From Candidatus Micrarchaeum sp. (GTDB lineage Archaea; Micrarchaeota; Micrarchaeia; Micrarchaeales; Micrarchaeaceae), in contig NZ_CP060530.1 in NCBI RefSeq assembly GCF_016806735.1, forward strand, positions 957,839 through 989,838: a stretch of DNA of 32,000 bases. The letters run 5' to 3'. Below, piece after piece: positions 9,169-28,354 of the stretch. How positions within the stretch are numbered: position 1 is the first letter of the stretch; each line of letters opens with the position of its first letter. Both the position numbers and the translations under genes were made by a program. Under the pieces are notes generated by a model. That model was not told where the DNA came from and did no database searches. It worked only from the letters and a program-made list of their open reading frames with translations.

Positions 9169-11571
9169 ATGGCCGAAAGCACAAAGGCGGAAGAAGAAAG
9201 CACCGCCAAGCAGGAAGACCAGAAGGTTGGCAATACAGAGATAGCACATGCAGGGCATGATGCAAAGGGATATGCCAAGACCAAAGGCAACGAAATAGCC
9301 AGAAACATCGCAAAGAAGGCATTCAACAAGAAGACGCTTACTGCGTTAGTTCTTTATATTCTAATAACGCTGCTTGTTTTCAATCCCGTCTTTTCGCACA
9401 TAGGCACAGTGGTACCTGGCACAGGAGGGGATTCTTTCCTTAACGTGTGGGAGATTTGGTGGACAGGATATGCGCTCTCATCGCATGCCGGCCTTTATTA
9501 CACTTATAGCATATTCTGGCCAGTTGGTGCAAATCTGGTTTACCAGACGATAGCTCCGCTTACTGGAATAATATCCCTTCCGTTCCAGGCGTTTGGGCTT
9601 ATAATAGCCTATAACGTGACATTGCTTGTAGGCATGCTAATAAGCGCCTTCGGCATGTTCGTGCTTGCCGAGTACATAACAAAGAACGGATATGCTGCAT
9701 TCCTGGCAGGGCTTTTCTATGCATTCAGCGCGGCGCACGTTGCCCAGGCATATGGGCACATGAACTGGGTAGACATAGGCTTCATTCCCGTGCTGCTCTA
9801 TTTCCTGCTGCGCGCAATATATGGAAGCAATAGCAAGTATGGGATAGTGACAAATGCACTTGGGATCGGCGTATCTTTCGTTTTCATAACATTCCTGGGC
9901 GGCTACGAGAAAGCTATAATGTCCATTATGCTTGCAGTTTTGGTAATAGTGCTTTATCTCATATACGAGCTTTATTACAAGCAGAGCAAGAAGCTCATAT
10001 TCAGCAAGGCGCTTTGGATAACCATAATCCTTGGAGTGGTTATTGCGTTCGTGCTGGGCTCATGGGGATTCCTCCCGTTAATACATACGCTTACCCAGAA
10101 GGGAGGCATAAGCGCGGCGCAGTACCTCAACAACGTCACGGACAACGAACAGTGGAGCAACAACGTGCTCTCTTTCTTCGTCCCGAGCTATTACAACGGG
10201 GTATTCAACCCTGGCGCAAGCTCTTCGTATTTCAGTTCTACATTCGGGTATGACCCAACCGAAAGAATAGGTTATATTGGTTACATACCGTTGCTGCTTG
10301 CGCTTGCAGGGGCATATTTTGACATAAAGGCACATAGGAAGAGGTATCTGCTGTGGGCCGCAATAGCAATTTTCTTCGCGTGGCTTTCCCTGGGCCCTTA
10401 CGTCCAGATAGGCAGCAGGATAACAAGCATACCGACGATATACCTTATTTACCATGCGATACACGGATTGAACGTGATAAGAGAGCCAGGAAGGTTCTTT
10501 ATCGTAGGAACCATAGGATTGGACGTGCTTGCAGCTATAGGCTTTTCTGAAATCCTTTCGAAAGACAAGATAAAAATATTGAAAAACAAGAAGCAGAACG
10601 CATATGCATTGGTTGGCATTGCAGCAATAATTTTCATAATTGGCAGCAGCGGAATCCCGCATACGTCGGCCAGTGCATCGGTACTGTCAACACCTGTTCC
10701 GAATAGTACATTTTACAAGAGCCTTGGCAGCGTCAATTCGAGCTTCAGCGTTCTTTCGCTGCCGATATTGGAATATTCGAACACCACGCAGCCTTTGCTT
10801 GACGAGGGGCTTGCAAACTATTACGCCGCGCTGTCCAAAAAGCCATTCGTAGGCGGCTACTTCGGAAGGGAAAACGCTACGCAGTTCCTATCAGTATACA
10901 ACATACCCATAACCGTGCAGGTAGAAAACCTTCTGGATGGAAACGGTTTCAATTATACTTCTCCAGTCAATGAAAATTATACCAACGAGACATTGTATTC
11001 CATGTACAGTTACCAGATTTCTGCGGTTACTTTGGACAAGAGCGCATTCGGAGCAGGCAACCTGCTCGGCATGGAGGATTATCTCGCATCACTCTTCGGA
11101 AAACCAGTATATAATGGGAATAATACCATAGCATTTGCGACAAGGGCAACCGAGGACGCCATAGTCAACAGGAGCTACATATCCTATCCATATCTCCCAG
11201 ACTGGAGCGAATACAGGATAGCATACAACGGAAGCGATTACAACATGTTTCTGCCTACGTATCCGGGCCCGATAACGGTTTACGCCCCGATATACAACAT
11301 AACAAATTCAACCAAGCACAACAGCATAGACAACACATCGGTAAGCTTTTATGCAATAGGCGAAGTAAACGGCTCGTCTTTGAAGGTTGCAGAGGCCACA
11401 AGCACAGGATACAGGCTTGTAGCAAACTTTACGATAAACAAGAGCCTTAAGTACTACAGCTTTTACATGAACATGAGCGCAGGAAATCCCAACCCCATAT
11501 TATTCATACCGTCTGAAGCCGCAAATACGTCAACAGTTCTGGTGAGCGGAATAACATTCTCGAAAGCATGA
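9169..11571 (+). CDS. large polytopic membrane protein, putative GT-C-fold glycosyltransferase with sequon-rich extracellular C-terminal domain
   Basis: 800 aa. A charged N-terminus is followed by about 13 TM segments. Acidic residues lie in the first external loop (GTGGDSFLNVWEIWW). The C-terminal 330 aa carry about 18 N-x-S/T sequons. The fold is inferred and there is no WWDYG motif. Confidence 0.55.
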   Translation: MAESTKAEEESTAKQEDQKVGNTEIAHAGHDAKGYAKTKGNEIARNIAKKAFNKKTLTALVLYILITLLVFNPVFSHIGTVVPGTGGDSFLNVWEIWWTGYALSSHAGLYYTYSIFWPVGANLVYQTIAPLTGIISLPFQAFGLIIAYNVTLLVGMLISAFGMFVLAEYITKNGYAAFLAGLFYAFSAAHVAQAYGHMNWVDIGFIPVLLYFLLRAIYGSNSKYGIVTNALGIGVSFVFITFLGGYEKAIMSIMLAVLVIVLYLIYELYYKQSKKLIFSKALWITIILGVVIAFVLGSWGFLPLIHTLTQKGGISAAQYLNNVTDNEQWSNNVLSFFVPSYYNGVFNPGASSSYFSSTFGYDPTERIGYIGYIPLLLALAGAYFDIKAHRKRYLLWAAIAIFFAWLSLGPYVQIGSRITSIPTIYLIYHAIHGLNVIREPGRFFIVGTIGLDVLAAIGFSEILSKDKIKILKNKKQNAYALVGIAAIIFIIGSSGIPHTSASASVLSTPVPNSTFYKSLGSVNSSFSVLSLPILEYSNTTQPLLDEGLANYYAALSKKPFVGGYFGRENATQFLSVYNIPITVQVENLLDGNGFNYTSPVNENYTNETLYSMYSYQISAVTLDKSAFGAGNLLGMEDYLASLFGKPVYNGNNTIAFATRATEDAIVNRSYISYPYLPDWSEYRIAYNGSDYNMFLPTYPGPITVYAPIYNITNSTKHNSIDNTSVSFYAIGEVNGSSLKVAEATSTGYRLVANFTINKSLKYYSFYMNMSAGNPNPILFIPSEAANTSTVLVSGITFSKA

Positions 11572-12855: not shown

Positions 12856-14115
12856 TCATTTTGATAAAATCCAATTTATAGCATTTACGAACTCCAGTTT
12901 TATTCCGCTGTTTTCTTTAATATGGGAATCCCCCATTGTTATTATTAGGGCTTTTTTTAAGCCAAGAGCTTTTGCGGCTGCGATGGATCCTGCAACTTCC
13001 CTATCCATGGTTTTGTCCTCTTTTATATAGTATGAAGCCTGAAATATCCCCTCAACGCTGTTGCCATTCCTTATTATAAAATCCGCTTCATGCCCTTCTT
13101 TGTCCTTGAAATATGATATTTCACTGCCCTGCTTCAGGCGCCTCCTTAGCTCAAGGTACACAAGCGTTTCGAACGTTATCCCCAGATCCTCCCTGCCTGT
13201 AATCCCATGGTAAAAGCCAGTGTCTCCGGCATACACCTTCCGTGGATACTGTTTTATTGCCTTTATGCTTTTAGAAAATATTTGGGAAAAGAAGAACAAG
13301 TATGCAGTCTGCGAATAACGTTCCAGCCTGAGAAATTTTTCCTTTCCAGCTTTATAACCAAGACCGCTTATGAAGTTCATGCACTTCGAAGCAGAAAAAT
13401 AACTGGATTGCAAAAGATATCTTGCAAACGTATCGACTAGGCTTATCTCCTCCGAACTGGCTTCGGCTACGTCGAGACCTACTATATCAAAGAAATACGA
13501 GCTTATAATCCTAATCTTGTCTATGCTGCCATCGACAGAAGCCACTTCAGGAAAGCCACCGTAGAGCAGGTATTCCTTGAACGCTTTCTCAAGAACCCCT
13601 TTTCCTGCAGTTGTCTTTTCAATGTGCGTTCCTCTGAAAGCGAGATATTCCTTGAAAGATAGCGGATATAATTCAAAATCAAGTATCCGGCCCCTCAAGG
13701 GCTTGTTTGGCATGGAGAAGCTCGCTATTGACGACGACACTATTAGCTTGAGCTTGCCCTTCAGCTGTTCGTGCACCCTCGAGAGCCAACCCTCCCAGCC
13801 CCTGATAGACGTTATTTCGTCGAGGAGCATGTAACCGTCTTCTCCAAACCATTTTAGCAGGGCGTCCAGAGGGTTTTCGAAGCTCTTTAGTCTGTCGTCT
13901 TCCATATTTATGTAGCATACCTTCTCGTTGCGCTTTGCAAGCTCCTGATAGAGCAGCATCATTACGCTCGATTTTCCGGAACGCCTTATGCCTGTCAGAC
14001 CGACTATTTTTATGTCTGAGTATTTTATCATTTTTCCAAAATCCATATCCCTTGGCTTTAGCCTTTTTGATTTTGAGTAGGCATTCCATTCCTCGAATAT
14101 ATCTTCAATTTCCAT
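12856..14115 (-). CDS. AAA+ ATPase, COG1373 / DUF4143 family
   Basis: 419 aa. Walker A is GIRRSGKSS and Walker B is MLLDEIT. The C-terminal EADFII...IFQASY region lies where the family's restriction-endonuclease-like domain sits. Confidence 0.85.
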   Translation of the reverse strand: MEIEDIFEEWNAYSKSKRLKPRDMDFGKMIKYSDIKIVGLTGIRRSGKSSVMMLLYQELAKRNEKVCYINMEDDRLKSFENPLDALLKWFGEDGYMLLDEITSIRGWEGWLSRVHEQLKGKLKLIVSSSIASFSMPNKPLRGRILDFELYPLSFKEYLAFRGTHIEKTTAGKGVLEKAFKEYLLYGGFPEVASVDGSIDKIRIISSYFFDIVGLDVAEASSEEISLVDTFARYLLQSSYFSASKCMNFISGLGYKAGKEKFLRLERYSQTAYLFFFSQIFSKSIKAIKQYPRKVYAGDTGFYHGITGREDLGITFETLVYLELRRRLKQGSEISYFKDKEGHEADFIIRNGNSVEGIFQASYYIKEDKTMDREVAGSIAAAKALGLKKALIITMGDSHIKENSGIKLEFVNAINWILSK

Positions 14116-14294: not shown

Positions 14295-14341
14295 CAAACA
14301 AAATCAGAATGTCATCGGAGAAAAGCTTGCTAAGTTGAGCT
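14295..14341. repeat. direct repeat copy B (authentic 23S 3' terminal-helix strand plus trailer)
   Basis: Identical to 12746-12792 and contiguous with the 23S body. Positions 14317-14333 pair with 17168-17184. Confidence 0.95.
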
Positions 14342-17184
14342 TTAGTAACGGAATGTTCACAGGTCGCAAAAGCTCCCTGCTTACGCACCCGTCCTATCAA
14401 AGTCGTCTATTGCGACCGCTCCAGTGCCTCGTTTCGGGTTTGGCTTCGTCCTTAGATGCTTTCAGGACTTATCCATTGGGCGCGTAGCTACCCGGCAATG
14501 CTTACACAACCGGTACACCAGTGGCGCCGATCCCTCGTTCCTCTCGTATTAAAGGGGTCTTATCCTCCGGCACTAACACCTCCAGTAGATACTACCGTAC
14601 TGTCTCGCGACGTACTGAACGCAGCTCATGTGAGTTTTTAATGGGCGTACAGCCCAACCCTTGGCGGCTTGTACACTGCCAGGATAACTCAAGCCCATAT
14701 CGATGTATCAATGCGCCAGGTCGATGCGGACTCTCACCGGCGACGAATCGGTTACCTCTAGAGTAACTTGTTTGACAGCTTGGAGCCCCATTAAAAGAGC
14801 TACCAACGTTCGTTAAGCCCCTGTTTCCAGTCTGCGTGTCACGCTTTTCGGCACACAGTCAGCCCTGCATTTGCCTTTATGCTTAACAGCGAGTTCCCAA
14901 CTCGCCTAAGCAGAGCATTGGTCGCTTTCGTTTCCTTATCGAAAGTAACCGTCCAGTCTAACTACCCACCTGCAGCTGTTCCCTCTCGGGTTAGCTGTAC
15001 GGCAAGCTAAGAGTGGTGTTACATTGTCGCTCCACGACCGCCGCAGCGATCGCTTCGACGCTCCCACTTACGCTATGCATAGCAAGCCGGACAACAACAA
15101 CAGGCTGTAGTCAAGCTTCATAGAGACTTCATTTCCCACTGGAGGATCGCGGCATATTCACCGCGCAGTGAGTTCACCGGATCCCAGGTTGGGACAGTGG
15201 AACAATCGTTACGCCATTCATGCAAGTCACCTATTAAGTGACGAGGTATTACGCTACCTCAAGAGAGTCAGAGTTACTCCCGCTCTTTGCCAGCGCTTAC
15301 TCCCCTTGAAAAGGGCATTCACGTACTGGCGGTGAGCAGGCGTCACCCACTGTACTAAGCCTTACGGCTTTGCGGTGAGTTGTGTTTTTGATAAACAGTC
15401 GTTGTTCCCTTGTCAGTGACATCTGCGCATACTATACGCAGACATGGTTTGTTGAAAACTTACACCACGATTTTGCCGAATTCCCTAACCTGGGTTATTC
15501 CGTCACACCTTGGCCTTTTAAGCCAGCAACACTTGTACTAGTTCTAGGTACGGACTAACGCGATCGTTGCAGATTCCCTTTTCACGGGCTCAAGAAATCA
15601 GTCCAACAGTTCATTTAGCTGCTTCTCCTCATAACGAGACTCTGCAGCCCTTTGCACTTTCTTACGGACCTATCCCCAAGCGTCAGAAATCTGCCTTGTG
15701 TTGCCACGCCTACGCGTTAGGGGCTGGAATATTAACCAGCTTCCCTTTTGAGGCAAGGTGATTGGCCTGCCTCTTAGGATCGCCTAACTCTCCGCTGACG
15801 AGCGTTGCGAAGAAAACCGTGTGCTTACGGTGTATGGGATTCTCACCCATATTTGCTGTTACTAACACCAGGATATTCTCTGCAGCATAGTCCATATGTC
15901 CTTCCGGACATACTTCGTGCCATGCCGCACGCCCCCTTACCAGTGCTTATCGCACTCTAGGGTCTCGGTACCTAATTTAGCCCCGTATATTTTCGGCAAG
16001 GTATGCCTCAACTGGTACGCTATTACGCGTTTTTTGAAGGATGGCTGCTTCTGAGCCTACCTCCCAGCTGTCTACGGCATTCCCCACCTTTAACACACTC
16101 AATTAGGATTTGGGGACCTTAACCCTAGTCACTATCTTTGTAGTCTCGCGGTGCTAGCTTACCCAACACCGCCGACTCCTGGGGTCTACACAGCGCATGC
16201 ATTCGGAGTTTGACGAGCGAGGGAGGCCTTTCGACCCCGTACCCGCTAATCGGTAGCTCTACCGCATGTGCAAGCTCGCCCAGAGCTATCCTAAAGATAC
16301 TTCAGAGGGGACCCGCTATTGCCAAGCTCGATAGGTATATCGCCGCTACCCGCGCCTCACCCAACAGGACATGCCATGACAGGTTGCGGACCTCCACCAG
16401 GCGTTAACCTAGCTTCATCCTGGGCGCGCGTAGTTCGCATTGGCTTCGGGTCGTATAAATGTGGCTCTGGCATTTTCATACCATGCGCCTCGAATCTGCG
16501 CGCTATCGCTTTCGCTTCGCCTTTCGACTCGCCACACCTATACACTCCCTGGCTCTTGCTTCAAGAAGAATGATAGGACACTGTTCGCCATTGCCTCGCT
16601 GATACCTTTCGGTACTTCGCTTCGGCATGGTACATTCCTTTCGTGCCCTACCTGCATGTAACCACCTAGTTTCAGATCTTTTCAATCCCACGCGTGTGGG
16701 TTCTTTTCAGCTTTCGCTCGCGCTACTTGTTCGCTATCGGTCTATAGCCAATATTTAGGGTTGGGGTTTAATGCCCCCGTATTCACTCCGCATACTCAAG
16801 CGGATTTACTCGTCTGCAGCAAGTCCATTGCACTACGTCTACGAGGCTGTCACTCTCTTTGGCCGCGCTTTCCAACGCGTTCGACTCATGTTCTGGATCA
16901 ACACTGCGCCACATCTCCACACCTTTTGCAAAGCGGGATTCAGCACGCCCTCTGCGGTTTTCGTTCGCATTACTTACCGCATCGCATTAAGCTTTCTTTT
17001 CCTGCGGGTACTAAGATATTTCAGTTCCCCGCGTATGCATGCCTCTCGGCACGATTCGGCAATCCCGGGTTCAAAGCCTGACTTGCGGCTACCCCGGGCT
17101 TATCGCAGCTTGCCACGGCCTTCATCGCTGCTATAGCCAAGCCATCCTCTAGGTGGCGTAAAAAATTTTAGCAAGCTCTTCTCC
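14317..17184 (-). rRNA. rrl: 23S (LSU) ribosomal RNA, divergent; ends approximate (plus or minus about 20 nt)
   Basis: The minus strand carries LSU landmarks. CAGCGAUGAAGGCCGUGGCAAGCUGCGAUA lies near the 5' end (17101-17130). The sarcin-ricin loop AAUACGAGAGGAAC is at 14537-14550. The A-loop region AAGGGUUGGGCUGUACGCCCAUUAAA is present, as are GAGACAGUACGG and the 3' region UUGAUAGGACGGGUGCGUAAGC. The ends are bracketed by a 17-bp helix, GGAGAAGAGCUUGCUAA/UUAGCAAGCUUUUCUCC. All plus-strand and minus-strand ORFs in this span are treated as spurious. Confidence 0.92.
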
Positions 17185-21567: not shown

Positions 21568-22413
21568 TCAAATCCTGTTTATATAGCTTTTTAACTCGCT
21601 TTTCGAAAGGAATTCCCAAAAATCCTCGTTGTCTGCGACTTCTGCATACTTCGGGATTATTTCGTTTAGCCTTTTTGCCATTTCCGGGCTGCAAGCACCT
21701 TTTAGCTGGTCCATGTATGTCCCCCTTGCATTTGGCTTTTCCAAGCCGAGCCTTTTCGTGAGTAAGCCATAAGGTGCGAAATACCTCAAAACAGCTTCTT
21801 CAAATTGGCGTTTGTTTTTATCTGCAATGACGTTATATCTGGAAAACAAGCAGTGCAGCAATTCGTGCAACAATACAGAAGCGGGCTCATTCCTGTCCTT
21901 TTTCAGCGCAAGTTCCCCTATCCTGTAGCCGATTACGCTTATGTCTTTATTTGTCGCCAACTTTTGCCCGTGAGAACCTGTTTTTATGTTGTGCTTGTCA
22001 AGTATTATTACAAGCCTTTTTGGTAGATCCATTTCGAATATTTCCCAGATGCTCTTTTCTATCTCTTCCATTTTTTGTGAGAAGGAATTACTTATAGTTC
22101 CCTTTAATTCGTTGAAGAAATCGTCGTTTTCTTTTTCTAGATGCACGTCAAGATTGTCGAGCATGGAAACTATTTCTGCGTATTCGGGCTTTTCTATTTC
22201 CTTTTCCGGATTTTCATCGAAGCATACATCCCATATGGATTGCTTTTTGGGTATCGAGACTGAAGCTTCGAATATCCTGCTTGAGAGATAGACATCCTTG
22301 CCAAAGAAAGAAGGGAACTCCTTTACGGGTTCTGGAAGGCTACCCTGACCAAACATGCTGAAAATAGCATCAAGCTTCCTGAACCTGTCGTCAGTAATGA
22401 ATTTTATTTCCAA
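21568..22413 (-). CDS. hypothetical protein with HExxH zinc-metallopeptidase motif
   Basis: 281 aa. LLHELLHCLF is followed 19 residues later by QFEEAV, a gluzincin-like spacing. No family recognised. The GC content is lower than in the neighbours. Confidence 0.55.
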   Translation of the reverse strand: MEIKFITDDRFRKLDAIFSMFGQGSLPEPVKEFPSFFGKDVYLSSRIFEASVSIPKKQSIWDVCFDENPEKEIEKPEYAEIVSMLDNLDVHLEKENDDFFNELKGTISNSFSQKMEEIEKSIWEIFEMDLPKRLVIILDKHNIKTGSHGQKLATNKDISVIGYRIGELALKKDRNEPASVLLHELLHCLFSRYNVIADKNKRQFEEAVLRYFAPYGLLTKRLGLEKPNARGTYMDQLKGACSPEMAKRLNEIIPKYAEVADNEDFWEFLSKSELKSYINRI

Positions 22414-23348: not shown

Positions 23349-23876
23349 TCATTCCTCTGACTTCTCCTCCTTTGGCTCTTCTTTCTTCTCTTCCTTCTTT
23401 TCCTCCTTATGCTCTGGCTTGTGCTCCTCTTTGTGCTCTGGCTTTGCTTCGGCTTTCGGCTCCTCCTTCTTCTCTGCCTTTGCCTCCTGCTTTGGCTCAG
23501 CCTTTGCCTTCTGCGAGGTTCCTGTTGTCTTGGAGATTATGTCCTTTATCGCCTGGGATGCGCTTCCCTGGGATTCTACCGCTATGGCCGCGCACTGCAC
23601 CGTGAGCCCTATGGACTTGCCAAGCTCAAGCTTGCTTGGAACGTATGAAAAAGGTATCTTCTTCTGCTCGCAGAGCTGAGGTATGTGCATCGCAATCTCT
23701 TCAGGCTCTATGTCCTCTGCAAGGACTACGAATGTTGCAGAGCCCCTTTCTACACTCTTTGTCACTTCGTTTATGCCCTTTCTGAGCTTGCCTGACTGCT
23801 TTGCCATCTGCATTGCTTCGTATGTCTTTGAAGCCACATCCTTGGATACTTCGAACTTCACGTAAGATTTTGCCAT
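23349..23876 (-). CDS. rpl7ae: 50S ribosomal protein L7Ae (eL8 family) with about 55-aa K/E-rich C-terminal tail
   Basis: The N-terminal 120 aa contain KLRKGINEVTKSVERG.ATFVVLAEDIEPEEI..HIP.LCE.K.IP...V.SK..LG. The tail is AKAEPKQEAKAEKKEEPKAEAKPEHKEEHKPEHKEEKKEEKKEEPKEEKSEE. Confidence 0.9.
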   Translation of the reverse strand: MAKSYVKFEVSKDVASKTYEAMQMAKQSGKLRKGINEVTKSVERGSATFVVLAEDIEPEEIAMHIPQLCEQKKIPFSYVPSKLELGKSIGLTVQCAAIAVESQGSASQAIKDIISKTTGTSQKAKAEPKQEAKAEKKEEPKAEAKPEHKEEHKPEHKEEKKEEKKEEPKEEKSEE

Positions 23877-27747: not shown

Positions 27748-28050
27748 TTATTTTTTATCCCTTTTAAGTATGTTTGAGTTTCCCTCTTCTATCACTGAAA
27801 CTGCTGACACCGAGAACGGCTTTCCGCACACTGCTCCTAGCTCCATAGGATTGCCCTCGAATATTTCCATGGGCACGTTGGCTACTTTGGCCATGTGCGC
27901 TATGTCCTGCATCGTGCTCTCCTTGTTTTTCGAAGCCACAACTATGAGCTTTGCCTTTGCATCCCTGAGCGATTTTATGACGCTGTTAAGACCCAGTGCC
28001 GTGACTCCGCTGTCAACTGCGAGCCTGATTTCGCTTGATAAATCTGCCAT
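27748..28050 (-). CDS. rpl30e: 50S ribosomal protein L30e (eL30)
   Basis: The 100-aa form starting MADLSSEIRLAVDSG aligns end to end with the recalled L30e pattern (AKLIVVA.N, ELG...GKP..VS..AV). The track start at 28095 adds 15 non-homologous residues. Confidence 0.85.
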   Translation of the reverse strand: MADLSSEIRLAVDSGVTALGLNSVIKSLRDAKAKLIVVASKNKESTMQDIAHMAKVANVPMEIFEGNPMELGAVCGKPFSVSAVSVIEEGNSNILKRDKK

Positions 28051-28354
28051 CGTTATCAACTTTTGTGCTGTGCATACTGCAGAATAGCACCGCAAGAAAC
28101 CCGTAGGTACTACTGCAGCCTTGGTATAGCAGTATATTTAAAATAGGAAAGATATATATAAGCTATCCCTAGCTTTTGGCACTTTGGCTATAGAGGAACT
28201 TTTTCGCTGCGATTTATGCATGGCCCGTATACAACAGGGACCGCAGTCGCACCAAACCAGTGATGCCATGCACTTCCGGAAGCACAACGGATAAGAAACT
28301 TTAAATAGATTGCAGAAACAACTAAATACGCTTAATTTTGCATATGTGTTTAGT

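Follow-up and report, generated by a model that had tools for sequence, protein, structure and literature searches.

The closest described precedent for a naturally altered peptidyl transferase center (PTC) is that of Thermoprotei and Methanomethylicia, known from the Pyrobaculum calidifontis ribosome, where the reported divergence covers positions 2447-2453 and 2500-2504 and a connection with antibiotic resistance is considered possible (bioRxiv 10.1101/2024.11.12.623245). Natural variation has also been described in the A loop of Thermoproteota, as U2554C/U2555C at two positions that are elsewhere almost always UU (Nissley et al. 2023, PMC9976906). The 23S ribosomal RNA (rRNA) gene compared here with these systems lies in a 32,000-nucleotide stretch of Candidatus Micrarchaeum sp. 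(contig NZ_CP060530.1, positions 957,839 to 989,838), hereafter the window, for which a preliminary description had reported departures from the near-universal consensus in the PTC and the sarcin-ricin loop (SRL). Judged from its sequence, it is very probably a functional and clade-typical gene of Ca. Micrarchaeum (DPANN; ARMAN-1 / M. harzensis type), a tiny archaeon of acid mines, with a catalytic core that is unchanged and a second shell that is remodelled, and it is probably single-copy.

Like the Thermoprotei system, the Micrarchaeota show natural, clade-level changes in an archaeal ribosome that include A2453C, U2500C and G2447A and leave the catalytic nucleotides in place, and A2448G and A2453C, both clade-wide, are substitutions of conserved sites within the reported range. 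Unlike that system, they are DPANN archaea, mesophilic or moderately thermophilic acidophiles that are known here from sequence alone; elongation factor 2 (EF-2) and the contig labels place the window in Micrarchaeota/Micrarchaeaceae and not in Thermoprotei or Methanomethylicia, the window EF-2 being 100% identical to proteins named 'Candidatus Micrarchaeum sp. ARMAN-1' (NCBI lineage Archaea; Nanobdellati; Micrarchaeia; Micrarchaeales; Micrarchaeaceae). The altered sites extend beyond the Thermoprotei set to G2505A, 2507/2582, 2446/2064, A2448G and A2062U, and they further include a shorter P loop, A loops that vary and are in some cases shortened, and the bulged G of the SRL. In the A loop, most relatives of the window resemble Thermoproteota in departing from UU, with C2554/U2555 and in some cases U2554/C2555, whereas the window has U2554/A2555, other lineages have AA or a shorter loop, and there is no link with hyperthermophily. 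The text of Nissley et al. (bioRxiv 10.1101/2024.11.12.623245) makes no mention of Micrarchaeota, DPANN, G2505 or 2655, and a literature search for Micrarchaeota or DPANN together with PTC or SRL divergence found no prior description. What is new is a clade-fixed remodelling in another phylum, at different and broader sites, which reaches the length of the P loop and the SRL.

Base identities in the PTC and the sarcin-ricin loop

The gene was aligned structurally with Infernal (cmscan) to RF02540 in two stretches (14300-15000 and 14990-15560), with the posterior '*' at every relevant column, and E. coli numbering was checked on the annotated MG1655 rrlH before being transferred to the window (Table 1). 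The match to the model is full-length and far above the cut-off of 50 bits. In this alignment, the consensus GGGAUAACaGag reads GAGGUAACCGAU in the window, ACcUCGAUGUCgGcUc reads ACAUCGAUAUGGGCUU, GAgCuGGGUU reads GAGCUGCGUU, GGcUGUUCgCC reads GGCUGUACGCC and UAGUACGAGAGGAAC reads UAAUACGAGAGGAAC, while the P loop consensus cuGGGGCgg appears as CUG-GACGG, with one G deleted and an A at the position aligned to G2253. Within model positions 2467-2828, 29 of the 197 upper-case (highly conserved) consensus positions deviate. Every base call in the preliminary description proved to be the right base in the right column, its sub-coordinates were correct to a few bases, and the columns that it had assumed were those of RF02540, with no shift. 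Absent from it were G2446A/C2064U, A2448G, A2062U, U2057/A2611 and the one-base shortening of the P loop.

The substrate-contacting A2451, U2506, U2585, A2602 and G2553 are all present at their aligned columns, which also bear out the earlier proposal that A2451, C2452, G2553, U2585 and A2602 are retained. Strand 2446-2457 of the PTC ring keeps G2447, A2450, A2451 (14752) and C2452, strand 2496-2507 keeps U2500, C2501, G2502, A2503, U2504 and U2506, strand 2576-2585 keeps G2583, U2584 and U2585, the A loop keeps U2552, G2553 and U2554, and the P loop retains two adjacent Gs despite its shortening. In strand 2057-2064, U2057 pairs with A2611 (14593) and U2064 with A2446. All SRL bases save 2655 equal the consensus, including the GAGA tetraloop with A2660 and A2662, the intact C2658-G2663 closing pair and the U2656/A2665 pair; of the bulged-G motif, only the G of the G2655.U2656.A2665 triple is absent, as an A occupies that position.

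The pairwise swaps that had been proposed fared differently. The bases C/A of the reversed 2453/2499 wobble were confirmed, although the site is written in lower case and is only moderately conserved in archaea. The exchange of C2507-G2582 for G-C is true of the window, but most relatives have G.A instead. The change of G2455-C2496 to A-U is no deviation, since archaea normally have A2455-U2496 (lower-case a/u in the Rfam consensus); in E. coli, G2455A performs poorly as a single change, and the archaeal A2455 has U2496 as its partner.

Table 1. Position of the 23S rRNA gene, its altered elements and the EF-2 gene in the window (RF02540, LSU_rRNA_archaea; E. coli numbering; LSU, large subunit; nt, nucleotides; aa, amino acids)
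Feature	Position	Strand	State in the window	Basis
Complete 23S (LSU) rRNA gene	14323..17173	-	2851 nt	RF02540, 2274.7 bits, model 1-2987
PTC ring strand 2057-2064	15124..15131	-	UGAAGUCU; A2062U, C2064U	
P loop (helix 80, H80)	14950..14955	-	GGAC (4 nt) vs GGGGC (5 nt)	Infernal gap
PTC ring strand 2446-2457	14746..14757	-	AGGUAACCGAUU; G2446A, A2448G, A2453C	
Position 2453	14750	-	A2453C	RF02540 alignment and rrlH numbering
Position 2455	14748	-	G2455A	RF02540 alignment and rrlH numbering
PTC ring strand 2496-2507	14696..14707	-	UACAUCGAUAUG; C2499A, G2505A, C2507G	
Position 2496	14707	-	C2496U	RF02540 alignment and rrlH numbering
Position 2499	14704	-	C2499A	RF02540 alignment and rrlH numbering
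Position 2505	14698	-	G2505A	RF02540 alignment and rrlH numbering
Position 2507	14696	-	C2507G	RF02540 alignment and rrlH numbering
A loop (H92)	14644..14654	-	GGCUGUACGCC; U2555A	
Position 2555	14648	-	U2555A	RF02540 alignment and rrlH numbering
PTC ring strand 2576-2585	14618..14627	-	GAGCUGCGUU; G2582C, partner of G2507	
Position 2582	14621	-	G2582C	RF02540 alignment and rrlH numbering
Sarcin-ricin loop	14539..14553	-	UAAUACGAGAGGAAC; bulged G2655 replaced by A	
Position 2655	14549	-	G2655A	RF02540 alignment and rrlH numbering
EF-2, GTPase docking on the sarcin-ricin loop	24386..26578	-	730 aa	

Distribution of the changes across the clade

About 75 related 23S sequences, whose domain V is 80-100% identical to that of the window, share G2505A, C2507G, A2453C/C2499A, G2446A/C2064U, A2448G and the four-nucleotide P loop. 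The relatives were aligned with MAFFT and placed on a simple neighbor-joining (NJ) tree; states were counted over 59 unique related sequences and pairing statistics over 66 unique clade sequences. A2446, U2064 and G2448 occur in 59 of 59, and A2505, G2507 and C2453, the last paired with A2499, each in 57 of 59, the alternatives at 2453/2499 being G.U (a double change) and C.C. Position 2507/2582 is G-C in the group of the window, G.A in most sequences, A-U in a single lineage and C-G in the contig L035, and 2509/2579 covaries as G-C or U-A. The four-nucleotide P loop (GGAC or GGGC) is found in every clade member (L008-L061 and relatives), and the 3' strand of H80 in the clade also lacks its bulged A. 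Certain changes are confined to sub-lineages, such as C2452U (nine loci), G2447A (three loci), U2500C (13/59) and A2503U. The A loop is more variable, with UA at 2554/2555 solely in the close group of the window (Micrarchaeum genus level), CU in most lineages and UC, UU or AA in others; a loop shorter by one base (CUG-AAG) was observed in L015 and L028, and L012 reads GUGAAUU, all three retaining U2552 and G2553 with 2554-2556 replaced.

In the Rfam consensus structure of H88-H93, 95.9% of the pair cells are standard and 37 of the 55 pairs show compensatory double changes, which points to purifying selection on the rRNA structure across the clade. Eight relatives were tested at full length, and each covers the entire model (2236-2344 bits). 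In domain V, four independent assemblies (L001, L002, L013 and L020) match the window at 99.7-100% identity. The substitutions turn up again in GTDB metagenome-assembled genomes (MAGs) and in metagenome contigs of JGI/ENA that come from unrelated sites.

A more distant group, ~71% identical to the window and derived partly from hot-spring metagenomes (L062, L065, L071, L072 and L080), has A2446/U2064, G2448 and A2499 like the window and a C at 2503 (AUCGCUGUC), is canonical at G2505, C2507-G2582 and G2655, and has five bases in its P loop; it resembles either an early step of the remodelling or a sister lineage. The use of L072 as an ordinary-archaeon baseline was rejected, because it has 13 conserved-position deviations in common with the window (own mismatches, 20/197) and is thus a distant relative and no independent baseline. 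L035 is intermediate, with A2655, C2453/A2499 and the four-nucleotide P loop, yet canonical G2505, C2507-G2582 and a UU A loop. It belongs to FK1.bin29, a MAG that contains two differing 23S genes (L035 and L031; 87% and 95% identical to the window) and is therefore a mixed bin. Micrarchaeota-type 23S genes are also found on contigs deposited as Methanothrix sp., Candidatus Acidoferrum sp. and Marsarchaeota (L020, L023, L012, L027 and L029); L020 equals the window in domain V, the same odd labels recur on EF-2 homologs, and such contigs are likely mis-binned or mislabelled. L003 (NZ_AP027616.1, 2911 bp, 'E. coli plasmid pLR-72_4') consists merely of a 23S gene that is not E. coli rrl, as it lacks the E. 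coli 5' end and PTC 19-mer, and is probably a contaminant or a mis-assembled contig.

Position 2655 and elongation factor 2

One genome per GTDB species (185,579 genomes) was scanned for an archaeal-type SRL with any base but G at 2655, using the pattern TAHTACGAGAGGAAC..GCC.C..GT.TA.CGG. Such a base was detected in just 41 contigs (A in 40, U in one), all of them 80-100% identical to the window over 300 nucleotides of domain V, so that they form one clade, and the Marsarchaeota, Methanothrix or Acidoferrum labels of some bins look like binning errors. This supports the earlier view that an A at the bulged-G position would be rare, non-G2655 being restricted to the clade of the window. A scan of metagenomes for the GAGGUAAY signature of the clade combined with the canonical G2655 yielded 40 contigs, ~35 of which share the PTC states, at 80-87% identity to the window. 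An NJ tree from which the focal sites had been excluded intermixes G- and A-types and implies three or more changes at 2655 (roughly counted), and G is present in about half of the related lineages. The PTC remodelling thus predates the change at 2655 and is the more stable of the two, whereas 2655 seems to toggle between purines. The G2655-type relatives were considered as second copies, which was rejected, since the identity between a G-type and an A-type sequence never exceeds 91% and they thus represent separate lineages. The sole U2655 was observed in L032 (YP3.bin43, match 210-251, + strand) at ~3x coverage, its nearest relatives L010 and L041 having A, and may be either real or a low-coverage error. 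In E. coli, 2655 needs a purine and pyrimidines are lethal, modelling indicates that a purine suffices (PMC4176186), and G2655C blocks translocation (PMC4176186, PMC2896532).

The comparison of EF-2 that the preliminary description had called for revealed a His for the P-loop Asp, a residue that in published EF-G structures lies beside the SRL close to G2655, and an Arg for the switch-I Gly. The P loop of the window EF-2 reads AHVHHGKT, with His31 (codon 26486-26488) where Asp is universal, and switch I reads RRMT, with Arg69 (codon 26372-26374) in place of Gly. The G1 motif AHxDxGKT and the switch-I RGIT, which together mark the predicted monovalent-cation site, are thus both missing, while Pyrococcus aEF2, like practically every translational GTPase, has AHxDHGKT and RGIT. 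The switch-II catalytic His is kept (DTPGHVDF), the five-domain architecture is complete (Pfam GTP_EFTU, D2, EFG_III, EFG_IV and EFG_C) and the match to P. horikoshii aEF2 is strong (E = 4.6e-250). Among the 120 closest EF-2 homologs, His is present in all save one (Gln) and the Gly site is nearly always Arg, Lys or Leu, whereas among 110 distant EF-2 cluster representatives with a readable P loop, Asp is found in 106 and His in two, one of these two clusters being Thermoplasmata. Many archaeal EF-2 representatives (P0123-P0136) are 900-1230 amino acids long, with a match that begins deep inside and an unreadable P loop, which is consistent with inteins in or near the G1 motif.

Close protein analogs are translocase paralogs such as EF-G-2 of Thermus thermophilus, in which, as in the window EF-2, both the P-loop Asp and the switch-I Gly that make up the cation motif are missing (PMC8244253); EF-G-2 differs in being a second paralog that also lacks the catalytic His. 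The window EF-2 retains this His and is encoded in the canonical S12-S7-EF-2 gene cluster, and therefore looks like the housekeeping EF-2. When aEF1A and other translational GTPases were sought in the DNA of the window and its relatives, only an aIF5B-like gene was found, in four G2655-type relatives, and it keeps GHVDHGKT and GGIT.

The 23S gene is the sole RNA gene detected by an Rfam scan of the window; 16S, 5S and tRNA genes were not found, so that it is unlinked to other rRNA or tRNA genes within these 32 kb. Synteny with EF-2 yields 23S only in near-identical genomes (L001 and L002), and at EF-2 identities of 86% or less the 23S gene is no longer within 10 kb of EF-2. An AAA_14/DUF4143 ATPase gene (12856-14115, -) adjoins the 23S gene on its 3' side; in Mia14, a genomic island adjoins the 23S gene (PMC5498576). 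No statement on rRNA copy number was found in the papers on Mia14 and M. harzensis. Two L7Ae-family genes (27748-28095, -; 23349-23876, -) flank the S12-S7-EF-2 cluster, the second being unusually long (175 amino acids), and two open reading frames (9169-11571, +, 800 amino acids; 21568-22413, -, 281 amino acids) have no Pfam match.

Explanations for the remodelling and its significance

The base identities and their columns, the fixation and covariation within the clade and the restriction of 2655 variants to it are direct observations. The nucleotides in direct contact with the substrates are kept, namely A2451, U2506, U2585, A2602, G2553, two P-loop Gs and A2660/A2662 of the SRL, and near-invariant positions around them have drifted, at 2446/2064, 2448, 2453/2499, 2505, 2507/2582, 2062, the A-loop positions 2554-2556, the length of the P loop and 2655. 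The changes fall into three kinds, namely those compensated by a pairing partner, those at positions that tolerate change in the laboratory, and the purine-for-purine exchange G2655A. Relaxed or shifted constraint in a small-genome symbiont may be the cause, the archaeal protein context and the altered EF-2 interface may aid tolerance, and translation would proceed normally.

Such tolerance is consistent with work on mutants. In the E. coli iSAT map of the PTC, G2057, A2058, A2062, A2448, C2496, A2497 and A2503 are flexible, as are U2504, G2505, U2554-C2556, G2253 and C2254, and activity relative to wild type is 94% for A2062U and 55% for G2253A (PMC7049736). Laboratory and clinical mutants share positions, and often bases, with the clade, such as A2062U, G2057U, G2253A, G2505 variants, U2555A and G2655A (PMC7049736, PMC4176186, PMC2896532, PMC9976906), and the natural changes of the clade lie mostly at positions scored as mutationally flexible (PMC7049736). 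These mutants, however, carry one change at a time in a bacterial background and often lose activity or fidelity, whereas about a dozen changes are fixed together in the clade, some of them, such as A2453C, detrimental on their own in E. coli. A2453C, U2500C and U2504C cripple E. coli ribosomes yet are viable in halophilic archaea, which is partly credited to a shorter uL3 loop, and G2447A is viable in halophilic archaea as well (bioRxiv 10.1101/2024.11.12.623245).

Several points weigh against a functional, compensated gene. The search for 23S genes spanned the 32-kb window, which leaves room for a second, canonical copy elsewhere in the genome. U2555A, as also U2555G, increases frameshifting and readthrough in E. 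coli (PMC9976906), and a fidelity cost is therefore possible. Compensation fails in some lineages, because the G.A at 2507/2582 in most relatives is non-standard. The rarity of the PTC substitutions outside the clade is judged from the upper-case Rfam consensus letters and the literature, and the number of independent changes at 2655 is a rough count, based on a MAFFT alignment and a simple NJ tree.

A wider proposal, offered tentatively and rather unlikely to be right, is that the clade uses an alternative solution at both of the most conserved sites of ribosomal RNA, with a rebuilt second shell of the PTC and a co-evolved GTPase-activating center. The rebuilt shell would comprise the four-base P loop, A2505, G.A or G-C at 2507/2582, the reversed 2453/2499 wobble and a freely varying A loop, and His31 and Arg69 of EF-2 would stand in for the bound monovalent cation, freeing the bulged G of the SRL to vary.

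The narrower idea that a remodelled EF-2/SRL interface loosened the constraint on G2655, with His and Arg replacing a cation-mediated contact of the P-loop Asp and the switch-I Gly, seems unlikely. It draws on AHVHHGKT and RRMT, common to nearly all of the closest homologs and rare in the distant ones, on the predicted monovalent-cation site formed by Asp31 and Gly69 of archaeal EF-2 (PMC8244253), and on Asp20 of EF-G, which contacts SRL phosphates and the G2655 2'-OH by way of Mg2+ (PMC4176186). However, the EF-2 change is uniform in the clade while 2655 varies and is G in about half of the lineages, so that there is no one-to-one link and any connection would hold at the level of the clade only; moreover, the aIF5B of the four G2655-type relatives is canonical, and the Thermoplasmata EF-2 cluster also has His.

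An adaptive origin, in which the changes confer insensitivity to PTC-binding small molecules and to sarcin-type ribotoxins of neighbors such as fungi and bacteria in acid biofilms, is equally doubtful, and could coexist with the main explanation of a functional, remodelled core, as its driving force. Changes known from resistance occur in the clade, including A2453C, U2500C, G2447A, C2452U, A2062U and G2505 variants; A2453C, U2500C and U2504C are associated with linezolid resistance and G2447A, A2453C and U2500C with anisomycin resistance (bioRxiv 10.1101/2024.11.12.623245), the bulged G2655 is a recognition element of alpha-sarcin (PMC2896532), and the original enrichment of M. harzensis also contained an acidophilic fungus (PMC8975820). 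Against this, no inhibitor or toxin is known for the habitat, P-loop length, 2446/2064, 2448 and 2507/2582 have no known link to resistance, and the repeated flips between G and A at 2655 look neutral rather than selected.

It is very improbable that the window 23S is a decaying or unexpressed pseudogene whose work is done by a canonical copy elsewhere, even though it differs at many conserved positions, stands apart from 16S and 5S and was the object of a search limited to the window. Neither truncation, nor loss of pairing or core bases, nor a lack of conservation in relatives was found; the gene and its relatives are full length, the states are fixed over sequences that differ by up to 20% elsewhere, pairing is maintained by compensatory changes, 40 species-level genomes have this gene type, and the G2655-types are separate lineages. 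In DPANN genomes of ~1 Mb, each rRNA gene is normally a single, unlinked copy, which also weighs against a pseudogene. The earlier view of a functional, diverged 23S is upheld by the shared states, the standard pairing, the full length and the identical assemblies. An assembly, sequencing or binning artefact in the form of a chimeric or error-laden contig is barely conceivable. In its favor are the low coverage of several related MAGs, the two 23S genes of FK1.bin29, the mislabelled bins and the ~3x contig with U2655; against it, for the window four independent assemblies from different projects agree in domain V, which rules out assembly error, and the substitutions recur at unrelated sites.

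The PTC and the SRL are textbook invariant RNA, and natural exceptions to them separate the nucleotides that are required from those held in place by context; sites changed here and not in the Thermoprotei case are 2505, 2507/2582, the length of the P loop and 2655. Ca. M. harzensis is a DPANN archaeon co-cultured with a Thermoplasmatales host, and its cryo-tomograms are rich in ribosomes (PMC8975820); such a co-culturable symbiont with a reduced genome makes cryo-electron microscopy and biochemistry feasible. Probes based on 23S and predictions of antibiotic or ribotoxin susceptibility may fail for these archaea, and the tolerated combinations are ready templates for ribosome engineering. The joint loss of Asp and Gly in EF-2 touches the debated role of the monovalent cation in GTPase activation. 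If the wider proposal of an alternative solution at both sites holds, the truly invariant nucleotides of the ribosome would be fewer than assumed, and the co-cultured Ca. M. harzensis would be a natural test bed.

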